Positions 8,174 through 9,625 of a stretch of DNA of 64,000 bases are shown piece after piece (position 1 is the stretch's first letter; every line of letters starts with the position of its first letter). Where the stretch lies: sequence record OP688485; one strand, written 5' to 3'. The position numbers and the translations under genes are program-made. Under the pieces are notes generated by a model, which was given only the letters and a program-made list of their open reading frames with translations, did no database searches and was not told the origin of the DNA. The DNA comes from Escherichia phage EP_H11.

Positions 8174-9556
8174 ATGTCCGATTCAAAGGTAGTTACCTGG
8201 GGGACGGTGCTAGTAACGGTAGGTATAATACTTGCCATTATGTTAGCTCCCACCCAGTTTGGTGCTGTAATGGACTGGAGTAAGTCTGTATTCATATCTC
8301 AGTATGGATTCATATTTACCTGGTCTTCGCTGATCTTCCTGGCGTTCCTGGCATTCTTTGTATTCAGCAAACATGGTAACATTAAGCTGGGCAAAGGTGC
8401 TCCGAAGTATAATCGCTTTACCTACTACTCCATGATGTTTAGTACTGGTATGGGCGTATCCATGATTTATTATGGCGTACTCGAGCCTATGTACCATCAG
8501 CAGGAGGGTATGTCCGAACGTCAGAATATGGTAACTACCTTCTTCGACTGGGGACTTAACGCATGGGCTGTGTATGCAGTCGTAGGAGTGGCATTCGGGT
8601 ACTTACTACATGTACGTGGCGAAGATCGTCCTCTTAACCAGTTATTTAAGTCCAGATCTCTGAATAACCTGAATACGATCAGTCTGTTATTCTCCACTAT
8701 CATCGGCCTGACCCTGTCGTTCGTCTACGCAGTAGGTCCTATTAGTTCAGGATTTAAAGAGTTCCTGGGAGTGGATATTGGTCCTTACACTATTATCGCT
8801 CTGTTAACTCTGGGTACTGTACTTAGTGCTATTACTGGTGTGGATCGTGGGGTTAAGTGGTTATCCAGATATAACGTAATCGTGGCTCTGACTATTATGG
8901 CATTCGTTGCTGTAAGTGGCACATTCTTCGAATACCTCTGGAAAACCATCACCTATTCCGGAAGCTACCTGCTACAGATTATCCCCATGTCGGTAAACAT
9001 CGGCAGTACTGCTGAAGAGAAGCAATGGTTAGCTAGCTGGCCTTATGCTTACTACGCAGCCTGGGTAGGTTGGGCACTATTCGTCGGAGCGTTTGTGGCA
9101 CGTATTTCTTACGGCCGTACTATTCGCGAACTGATCCTAGGATGTGTGCTGTTCCCTACCATCATCAGTAACATCTGGTTTACGGTATTCGGGGTAGCTG
9201 GTCTGCAACATGGTGCTCAGGATATCTTCCAGCTTCTGGCTAACTTCCCAGGAGGATGGATATTCTCCGTAATTACTCTCGTGTCGGTAATCCTGTTCTT
9301 CATCACAGGACACGATTCGGCAGGTATTACCGTAGAGTCCATGACCGCTCCCAGAACTCGTGTATTCTGGATTGTAAGCATGGGAGTAATTGCCGCAGCA
9401 CTTAACTGGGCTGGTGGAGATGTAGTTACTGTAACGAAGACTCTGGTAGCAGTATCGGCTGTTCCGGTACTAATTGGAGTATTGTGTATTCTATTCGGGT
9501 TCCTCAAGATCTTTGTACCTAAAGTATTCTTGGGTAAGGAAACTCCGCCTGTTTGA
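8174..9556 (+). CDS. BCCT-family (betaine/choline/carnitine-type) secondary transporter
   Basis: Multi-pass membrane protein with the BCCT signature WVGWALFVGAFVARISYGRTIRE and an N-terminal GNIKLG...GMGVSMIYYGVLEP block. Confidence 0.75.
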   Translation: MSDSKVVTWGTVLVTVGIILAIMLAPTQFGAVMDWSKSVFISQYGFIFTWSSLIFLAFLAFFVFSKHGNIKLGKGAPKYNRFTYYSMMFSTGMGVSMIYYGVLEPMYHQQEGMSERQNMVTTFFDWGLNAWAVYAVVGVAFGYLLHVRGEDRPLNQLFKSRSLNNLNTISLLFSTIIGLTLSFVYAVGPISSGFKEFLGVDIGPYTIIALLTLGTVLSAITGVDRGVKWLSRYNVIVALTIMAFVAVSGTFFEYLWKTITYSGSYLLQIIPMSVNIGSTAEEKQWLASWPYAYYAAWVGWALFVGAFVARISYGRTIRELILGCVLFPTIISNIWFTVFGVAGLQHGAQDIFQLLANFPGGWIFSVITLVSVILFFITGHDSAGITVESMTAPRTRVFWIVSMGVIAAALNWAGGDVVTVTKTLVAVSAVPVLIGVLCILFGFLKIFVPKVFLGKETPPV

Positions 9557-9579
9557 TGACCTAAAAGGCTGTTAAGGTG
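9545..9579 (+). promoter_or_regulatory. class A motif A4
   Basis: ccgcctgtttgatgacctaaaaggctgttaaggtg; overlaps the transporter stop and is followed by a hairpin. Confidence 0.45.
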
Positions 9580-9591
9580 TCAGAGGCATAC

Positions 9592-9625
9592 GGGGTTAGG
9601 TCTCTACGGCCTAACCCCATTTTTG
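9592..9625 (+). terminator. intrinsic terminator or attenuator hairpin
   Basis: ggggttagg-N9-cctaacccc followed by atttttg; lies downstream of class A motif A4 and upstream of the 9643 ATG. Confidence 0.55.

Follow-up and report, generated by a model that had tools for sequence, protein, structure and literature searches.

Composite promoter/terminator cassettes are known from the T4-type phages RB49/phi1, PST, and nt-1 as promoter-early stem-loop (PeSL) elements (PMC2839356, PMC4122927). Their stem-loops, found over the −35/−10 boxes or in the space between them, have been shown to terminate transcription, which sets an experimental precedent, and in all five PeSL subclasses the stem-loop precedes the start site (PMC2839356). 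Here we describe a candidate element of a related kind in a 64,000-nucleotide stretch of Escherichia phage EP_H11 (sequence record OP688485), called the window below. The element occupies positions 9545-9627 of the + strand, between the genes of a BCCT-family transporter and a PIG-L/LmbE-type deacetylase, and joins A4, one copy of a repeated motif termed class A, to a hairpin with a U tract. On balance, we favor the reading that it is a composite transcription-unit boundary, at which the hairpin would end the unit running from class A copy A3 through the BCCT gene and the same hairpin would serve as a leaky attenuator of A4.

Several properties are shared with the PeSL cassettes. The element bridges two genes, covering the interval between the upstream stop codon and the downstream Shine-Dalgarno (SD) sequence, and combines a conserved putative promoter with a stable stem-loop terminator/attenuator. 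A PeSL stem-loop that overlaps the promoter acts on incoming transcription, and the class A copies A7, A8, and A10 match this arrangement. Coincidence with indel breakpoints between close relatives may be a further common trait. However, the PeSL promoters are of the sigma70 early −35/−10 type with an AT-rich upstream region, whereas a clade-specific bipartite motif is found here. The phage is also not T4-like, as it has beta'-like polymerase genes and a thymidine-hypermodification cluster, and at A4 the complete terminator follows the start site, in the leader, a layout outside the five subclasses. Because promoter type, phage lineage, and stem-loop position differ, the A4 element was not classed as a PeSL member; by analogy, it can be taken to work like a PeSL cassette.

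The transporter gene (8174-9556) was taken from the list of open reading frames (ORFs) and matched Pfam BCCT with E=1.6e-91. It is annotated as a BCCT transporter in Escherichia phage vB_EcoM_IME392 (IME392), a 116-kb myovirus that has split beta'-like RNA polymerase genes together with a thymidine-hypermodification cluster and shows ~93% identity to the window. BCCT is the last gene of a unit that starts at A3 (core at 7223) and also includes a 302-amino acid (aa) gene. The class A motif has the form CCGCTCTTT-N10-AAAGGCTGTTA-N3-TGT. Block 1 of A4, CCGCCTGTT (9545-9553; family consensus CCGCTCTTT), was assigned from the repeat families and the copy listing; it is the upstream, −35-like element and lies within the final BCCT codons, where IME392 reads CCTCC. 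Direct reading bore out the statement of the initial annotation that A4 overlaps the transporter stop, since the TGA (9554-9556) sits inside the variable spacer of the motif, upstream of the core AAAGGCTGTTAAGGTGT (9564-9580). In this core, TG at 9570-9571 and the hexamer TAAGGT at 9573-9578 form the extended −10 pattern TGnTAnnnT. An unstructured 11-nt leader (9581-9591), poorly conserved in alignments, connects the promoter to the hairpin.

A perfect 9-bp stem with a U tract, located within 12 nt of the motif and before the PIG-L start, had also been described, and folding reproduced it at 9592-9618. The hairpin begins 35 nt past the BCCT stop codon on the coding strand. Its 5' arm (9592-9602) starts 12 nt past the TGT and is followed by the loop (9603-9607) and the 3' arm (9608-9618). 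The perfect stem consists of GGGGTTAGG (9592-9600) and CCTAACCCC (9610-9618), to which a U.G and a C-G pair are added for a total of 11 pairs. The whole reads GGGGTTAGG(TC)-tctac-(GG)CCTAACCCC, with a 5-nt loop, 7 G-C pairs, and a free energy (ΔG) of −19.4 kcal/mol; folding of the 65-nt A4 leader gave z = −3.35. The U tract ATTTTTGTG (9619-9627) consists of an A and then T5 at 9620-9624. Further downstream are the SD sequence GAGGA (9632-9636) and the ATG at 9643 of the PIG-L gene (9643-10254; Pfam PIG-L E=3.4e-14). PIG-L is the first gene downstream of A4 and is followed by the next gene at 10261-11295; the ORF list and the class A listing contained no other promoter for PIG-L and the 344-aa gene.

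Judged by its sequence, the A4 hairpin with its U5 behaves as a canonical intrinsic terminator that is under selection. The stem is G+C-rich, the loop is short, the U tract lies 0-2 nt from the stem, and the structure is placed on the coding strand after a stop codon, as expected of intrinsic terminators. A search for perfect stems of 9 bp or more with TTTT behind them gave two sites on the + strand of the window (6321 and 9592), no site on the − strand, and no site in 40 first-order-Markov random 64-kb sequences. Within positions 1-20000, the A4 hairpin was the top-ranked terminator-like site. A 16-mer of its tail, CCCCATTTTTGTGTAG, recurs unchanged as the tail of the conventional terminator behind an SbcC-like gene (2177-2198). 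Conservation was assessed in five sequences with an intergenic BCCT/PIG-L junction (the window, IME392, and the relatives L138, L130, and L139), among which BCCT identity goes down to 87%. The hairpin was present in all five. Every one of the 55 stem cells was paired across these sequences, with U-A to U.G as the sole change, so that 1 of 22 stem positions had changed compared with 16 of 41 positions in the rest of the noncoding junction (Fisher p=0.003). The U tract was kept as T5 or T4, the latter in L130 and L139 (TATTTTGTG). In L131 and L132, where BCCT is absent, the PIG-L promoter was kept, and neither hairpin nor U tract was found downstream of it. In L140 the BCCT and PIG-L genes overlap, with neither promoter nor hairpin between them. 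Together, these patterns mean that the hairpin is seen only where an intergenic junction separates BCCT and PIG-L.

The PIG-L promoters of L131 and L132 have a structure of a different kind. At 8120-8155 (L131) and 7393-7431 (L132), a 13-bp or 11-bp stem encloses the class A core (ACACCTTGA/TCAAGGTGT versus AACACCCTGA/TCAGGGTGTT; ΔG −19.5 and −23.1), with one compensatory change from T:A to C:G. No U tract follows, so this stem is not an intrinsic terminator. Other identities for the A4 region itself were tried and rejected. No Rfam family reached its gathering score; the tfoR small RNA (9515-9629) scored 25.9 bits against a gathering score of 70, which was judged a chance likeness driven by the terminator hairpin. 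An integron attC site was considered because the stem holds GTTAGGT...GCCTAAC, but the core-site order is wrong for attC, and 27 nt is too short. As candidates for an antiterminator or a leader peptide, the A4 leader offered only a weak AGAGG/UCUCU pairing and the 3-codon ATG-ACC-TAA. Both the minimum free energy and the centroid structure of the leader retain the terminator, with only 11 unstructured nucleotides ahead of it.

The motif upstream of this hairpin has a bipartite, sigma-like layout and is probably a phage-specific promoter of early/middle genes. Sixteen class A cores are present on the + strand of the window and none on the − strand, and a 20-nt version of the motif gave 6 matches at up to 3 mismatches compared with 0 in 100 shuffles. 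In IME392, all 25 copies are on the strand of the early/middle genes for replication and nucleotide metabolism, and none is found in the ~43-kb structural arm, where a late-gene promoter motif was sought by eye and nothing obvious was seen. Every copy in the window and in IME392 lies 14-110 nt upstream of an SD sequence and start codon. The 11-nt core is invariant in the 16 window and 25 IME392 copies, and that of A4 is unchanged in L130, L139, and L138, whereas spacer and N3 positions vary between orthologues. Block 1 is located ~18-20 bp upstream of the TGnTAnnnT-like core. The pattern TG-T-TA(N3)T occurs in 16 of 16 window copies, and its final T is replaced by C in two IME392 copies. Distant relatives retain related sequences. 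A class A-like core with small variations precedes PIG-L in L131 and L132, whose PIG-L proteins are only ~50% identical. The early genes of Acinetobacter phage Ab1-TPeters are preceded by the related bipartite motif CCTGTTTCTTAA-N-AAACCTGTTAA-NN-TGT and by a second subclass, and those of Ralstonia phage RP13 by AACGACTCTATAGAG-N6-GACCTTGTA, in which the TGnTAnnnT pattern is not kept. The beta' N-terminal fragments of these two phages are 38% and 35% identical to the phage homologue, respectively. A scan of IMG/VR with a 14-base core pattern returned only single, scattered, chance-like matches and no multicopy contig.

The shortest class A leaders measure 14-16 nt including the SD sequence, which would place the start site a few nucleotides after the TGT; for A4, it would probably be ~1-6 nt after 9580. 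With regard to the factor that reads the motif, a sigma70 scan requiring both hexamers detected no class A copy, and no TTGACA-like hexamer was present. Sigma70-type sites were rarer than in shuffled sequences, with 21, 23, and 28 found versus 34.6, 35.6, and 43.7 expected. Conservation across hosts and the loss of TAnnnT in RP13 favor a phage-specific reader. However, because the copies in the Escherichia coli phages fit the extended −10 pattern, host sigma70 may also be the reader. A hairpin enclosing the core was considered as a general part of class A and rejected, as the two flanks of a site paired with each other no better than with flanks taken from other sites (permutation p=0.52-0.85). 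The hairpins at class A copies are thus site-specific additions.

The window encodes a split beta', with the N-terminal half at 29676-31244 and the C-terminal half at 26582-28096. The N-terminal fragment is of the bacterial type (E=4e-51 to E. coli beta') and contains the catalytic motif NMDVDGD; termination at a hairpin and U tract would thus be expected to work. No homologue of beta or sigma was detected in the ORFs scanned by Pfam, PHROGs, PDB sequence search, and phmmer, the phmmer queries being approximate E. coli RpoB and RpoD fragments. The ORFs adjoining the beta' genes are clade-specific orphans with no family matches among those scanned, and a homologue search with a neighboring 483-aa ORF found no polymerase partner.

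In the proposed mechanism, A4 would start transcription a few nucleotides past the TGT, and the hairpin with U5 would end the A3-initiated transcripts that carry the 302-aa gene and BCCT. With the A4 promoter overlapping the BCCT stop codon, the terminator becomes part of A4's own leader, at about +7 to +45. It would abort part of the A4-initiated transcripts too, acting as a constitutive, leaky attenuator and as an insulator, and expression of PIG-L and the following gene would correspond to read-through of the summed A3 and A4 flux. We infer promoter activity, termination efficiency, and polymerase identity at A4 from these features. An attenuator was one of two roles suggested in the initial annotation for the hairpin should A4 be a promoter. 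As every plausible start site precedes the entire terminator, this role is the best supported one for A4-initiated RNA.

Hairpins at other class A copies were examined by folding. The initial annotation had pointed to a similar layout at A9, A13, and A10, and this was seen in three different forms. A9 has a branched hairpin that begins 2 nt past the TGT and is followed by TTTTATT (22498-22547), and different hairpins with T tracts are found at the A9 promoter in IME392 and L141. A13 has a leader hairpin at ~50237-50284, where the U tract is absent. At A10 (32908-32944), the core AGGCTGTTAAC itself supplies the 5' arm of a terminator hairpin with 17 pairs (ΔG −30.8, z −5.1) that continues into ATTTTTATTT (ATTTTT). 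Two further copies are embedded in terminators. In the A7 hairpin (15305-15332), the class A core provides the 5' arm with its 3' end (AAGGTGT...), and TATTTTTG follows; the inner stems of the orthologous hairpins differ in L141 and L132, with one compensatory change, in which TGT of the core becomes TGA and A of the 3' arm becomes T. At A8, located upstream of the DNA polymerase gene, an outer stem of 8-9 bp (CCTCCGCC / GGTGGAGG) surrounds the class A motif in full, with TTTATTTTT after it (18857-18901; ΔG −33, z −6.5). IME392 has GGCGGAGG there, with G-C replacing G.U, and the same architecture is found in L132 with other arms (GCTCCG / CGGAGC) and in L141.

Relative to the TGT, the terminator 5' arm begins at −6 in A7, −38 in A8, and −14 in A10, versus +12 in A4. 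Because the 5' arm at A7, A8, and A10 is located within the promoter or upstream of it, only incoming transcripts can fold the terminator, and only these should terminate. The embedded-terminator architecture is conserved in L132 and L141 with changed arm sequences. The order found at A4, promoter and then terminator, recurs in the IME392 version of A9 and at Ab1-TPeters site 43225 (GGAGACTTCGGTCTCC+T5 before the start codon). Hairpins starting 2 nt past the TGT occur at A9 and at the AAA-ATPase promoter of L131 and L132, where the reading hinges on the exact start site. Taken together, the sites show that terminators are systematically fused to promoters in these genomes. The initial annotation had argued that class A could not be a simple promoter if the hairpin were the terminator of the upstream gene. 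This either/or proved false, because composite elements exist both among the PeSLs and at A7, A8, and A10.

A related observation concerns the reverse complement of the core, which is found again shortly downstream of the core at independent sites of two phages that are only distantly related. Such sites are present in the window at 11306-11326 (A5) and 32908-32944 (A10), in IME392 at ~61126-61190 on the reverse complement, and in Ab1-TPeters (L125-L126; PP763253.1 coordinates) at 13261, 21854, 36946, 43226, and 65070. At Ab1-TPeters 36946 and 65070, the 3' arm overlaps the SD sequence, which would therefore be sequestered in read-through RNA and not in promoter-initiated RNA. In addition, a terminator TAGCGCTCTTTAGGGAGCGCTA+T5 at 53677-53698 of the window contains CGCTCTTTAGGG, the class A block 1 sequence, in its 5' arm and loop, with no core after it.

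Several points weigh against a leaky attenuator and unit boundary at A4. The stem shows conservation and one wobble change, with no compensatory double change, and thus no covariation. The link between hairpin and BCCT comes from few lineages, and L140 has both genes without either element. The start site was placed solely from the shortest leaders and the sigma70-like geometry. An efficient terminator would make A4 largely futile and keep PIG-L expression low, which sits badly with the strict conservation of the promoter core. Finally, A7, A8, and A10 keep the full hairpin out of the promoter's own RNA, which suggests that self-termination is normally selected against and that A4 is an exception in need of a reason.

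Strict conservation of the core in spite of the terminator would fit A4 complexes that escape termination. Termination would then be selective for transcript origin or polymerase: only transcripts from upstream or from another polymerase, such as early host RNA polymerase, would stop, and class A complexes would be resistant owing to a promoter-loaded factor, a retained specificity subunit, or the initially transcribed sequence. Lambda pR'/Q and HK022 put offer parallels, in that a short-range intrinsic terminator has to be passed for expression of the downstream genes, and a promoter directly before a terminator is the signature layout of promoter-proximal antitermination, as in lambda pR'-tR'/Q. 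At A4, a promoter is followed directly by a strong terminator in five genomes, with strict conservation of both, no other promoter serves PIG-L and the 344-aa gene, and the phage's own beta'-like subunits make it probable that two polymerase forms coexist. The same order at the IME392 version of A9 (A9') and at Ab1-TPeters 43225 also agrees with this explanation. However, the ORFs scanned near the polymerase genes had no family matches, although a divergent factor may have been missed, and no element or protein of the Q, N, or put type was identified. A Q-binding element, a promoter-proximal pause, and a put-like double stem-loop were likewise not found, and the poorly conserved 11-nt leader shows no evident −10-like pause element. 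The distances differ as well, with ~40 nt here compared with 194 nt from pR' to tR' in lambda, and few of the 16-25 class A promoters have the A4 layout. Moreover, terminator-blind class A complexes would make the conserved designs of A7, A8, and A10 needless; that the 5' arms are kept out of the promoter RNA at these sites argues for terminator-sensitive complexes. We consider selective termination possible but rather unlikely. A further reading, in which A4 would fire constitutively into the terminator ~40 nt downstream and, with the hairpin, make up a gated switch that releases a short hairpin RNA, with read-through into PIG-L and the downstream thymidine-hypermodification genes licensed by a phage factor or the beta'-containing polymerase, seems to us improbable.

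The second role that the initial annotation had suggested for the hairpin, a processed 5' stem-loop, was less well borne out. The hairpin would then be a 5' stem-loop or an RNase III-type site of the PIG-L mRNA rather than a terminator. T7 provides precedents, as phi10 transcripts begin with a stabilizing stem-loop and RNase III sites follow several T7 promoters, and A4 resembles these in having a stable transcript hairpin within a few nucleotides of a phage promoter. In addition, stable hairpins without a U tract follow many class A copies, copies of a second repeat family (class B), and sites in relatives (A13, A5, IME392 reverse-complement positions 56302 and 66333, and several Ab1-TPeters sites). 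At A4, however, the U tract directly after the stem is conserved and matches the gene-end terminator tail at 2177. Protective 5' hairpins of the ompA type need a near-terminal position, whereas at least ~7 unpaired nucleotides would precede the A4 hairpin, counted from a start inferred within ~5 nt past the TGT. A perfect 11-bp stem with a 5-nt loop would be an atypical RNase III substrate, and the hairpin is also absent in the two BCCT-less relatives. We therefore regard the A4 hairpin as terminator-like rather than as a 5' cap-like structure or RNase III substrate, and a role in stability or processing as doubtful. Little probability was likewise given to the explanation that class A is an RNA-processing, protein-binding, or cassette-recombination element and no promoter, in which case the hairpin would be the BCCT terminator and PIG-L would be expressed by read-through. 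The start position is indeed a predicted one, block 1 and core are partly complementary (GC-T-CTTTT / AAAAG-GC) so that an RNA or single-stranded DNA fold is conceivable, and class A or class B motifs mark several of the indel breakpoints that separate the window from IME392. Against this, the two blocks are invariant and keep a fixed spacing, the spacer between them varies, and the start codon lies at a variable distance of 14-110 nt, which is the pattern of a promoter that a protein reads on DNA and not that of an RNA operator. The flank-pairing test gave no sign of a common fold, the motif is absent from the late-gene arm, and long gene blocks would be left promoterless, given that sigma70-type sites are fewer than in shuffles.

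Two further groups of systems invite comparison with the composite boundary at A4. Bacterial leader attenuators (trp, pyr, T-box, and riboswitch platforms) also place an intrinsic terminator in the 5' leader before the first gene. The A4 leader of ~60 nt differs from these in having no alternative antiterminator fold, leader peptide, or ligand- or tRNA-binding domain. The promoters of the multisubunit RNA polymerases of phiKZ and AR9 resemble class A as short, conserved, phage-specific motifs confined to temporal gene classes in phages with split beta/beta'. The phiKZ consensus is AT-rich with TATG, and that of AR9 is AACA-N6-TW. The class A sequence is unrelated to both, the beta' described here is much closer to the bacterial protein, and no beta or fifth subunit was detected.

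Besides class A, the window contains the class B repeats, located on the + strand at 2224-2284, 24980-25040, 28804-28864, 33019-33079, and 36517-36577. They consist of an AT-rich stretch, TAAAGCCCGTTCTTTTGGGTGGGGCGG, and then a G-rich hairpin, with a skeleton resembling that of class A (AAAG-NNNGTT...TGG). Most copies lie close behind a terminator-like hairpin, and two precede gene blocks containing the beta' genes. Class B may be a second promoter class. In the IME392 record, a region beyond the window (~55300-61200) has 8 class A copies in ~6 kb, two of them in tandem at a distance of 58 bp; few genes are annotated there, and the leaders are long and structured. This cluster may be an early region or a cluster of noncoding RNAs.

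The surroundings of A4 (6420-15958) form a thymidine-hypermodification cluster according to Pfam, comprising a methyltransferase, BCCT, PIG-L, a glycosyltransferase-like protein, a 5-hydroxymethyldeoxyuridine (5-hmdU) DNA kinase, a thymidylate-synthase homologue, and an HD phosphohydrolase. This fits a published DNA polymerase grouping, which places IME392 with the T-hypermodified phages YerA41 and Carin-5. A BCCT transporter within such a cluster is unusual, and the hypermodification gene content in this region differs among relatives. A methyltransferase accompanies BCCT in the window and IME392. In L130 and L139, BCCT occurs with a PS-decarboxylase-like gene and an adjoining gene, and the counterpart of the adjoining gene in L131 and L132 has ATP-grasp matches. 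L131 and L132 have the PS-decarboxylase-like and ATP-grasp genes, with BCCT absent. Class A copies bound the presence or absence of BCCT among the relatives. A search for related loci based on PIG-L gave no match in viral contigs and only 2 distant, nonsyntenic matches in metagenome contigs. More distant PIG-L homologues (P0005-P0007) were considered as comparison loci and rejected, as their contexts are unrelated and class A is absent.

Collinearity between the window and IME392 is interrupted at seven places (2296-2506, 3001-3011, 22491-23544, 28908-28916, 32978-33002, 41302-41609, and 57373-58048). About four of the seven indel breakpoints are at or beside class A or class B motifs, by a simple count. 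One of them is inside the A9 core, where the window has an extra 303-aa gene and IME392 a different 184-bp leader. The position of breakpoints at the motifs suggests modular shuffling at promoters of the kind seen with PeSLs. Elsewhere in the window, a 168-aa ORF (32054-32560) matched the PHROG "RNA ligase" (2H-phosphoesterase-like) with E=5e-9, and its IME392 orthologue has a weak Pfam match to Acb1 (anti-CBASS) with E=4.6e-5, below the gathering score. The preceding ORF (31244-31765) is RNase H.

Papers on YerA41 give solely predicted sigma70 promoters and report virion-associated polymerase subunits together with a sigma factor. The literature search found no paper on IME392 transcription and no published transcription map for the IME392-like coliphages, Ab1-TPeters, or RP13. 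Within the limits of these searches, the clade-wide promoter consensus and the embedded-terminator designs appear to be undescribed. The analysis thus provides a sequence-level promoter map for a poorly studied clade, made up of the IME392-like coliphages, Ab1-TPeters, and RP13, whose members combine split beta' genes of the bacterial type with a thymidine-hypermodification cluster. For annotation, the lesson is that a terminator after a promoter disqualifies neither element. The exception at A4, whose own RNA carries the full terminator, bears on whether the phage polymerase terminates like that of the host or class A initiation confers read-through. If A4 were a gated switch, this would be promoter-proximal antitermination in a clade with a bacterial-type split beta' and no recognizable beta or sigma. 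More broadly, if this were true, the clade may make termination depend on the origin of the transcript, by means of promoters embedded in terminator arms.

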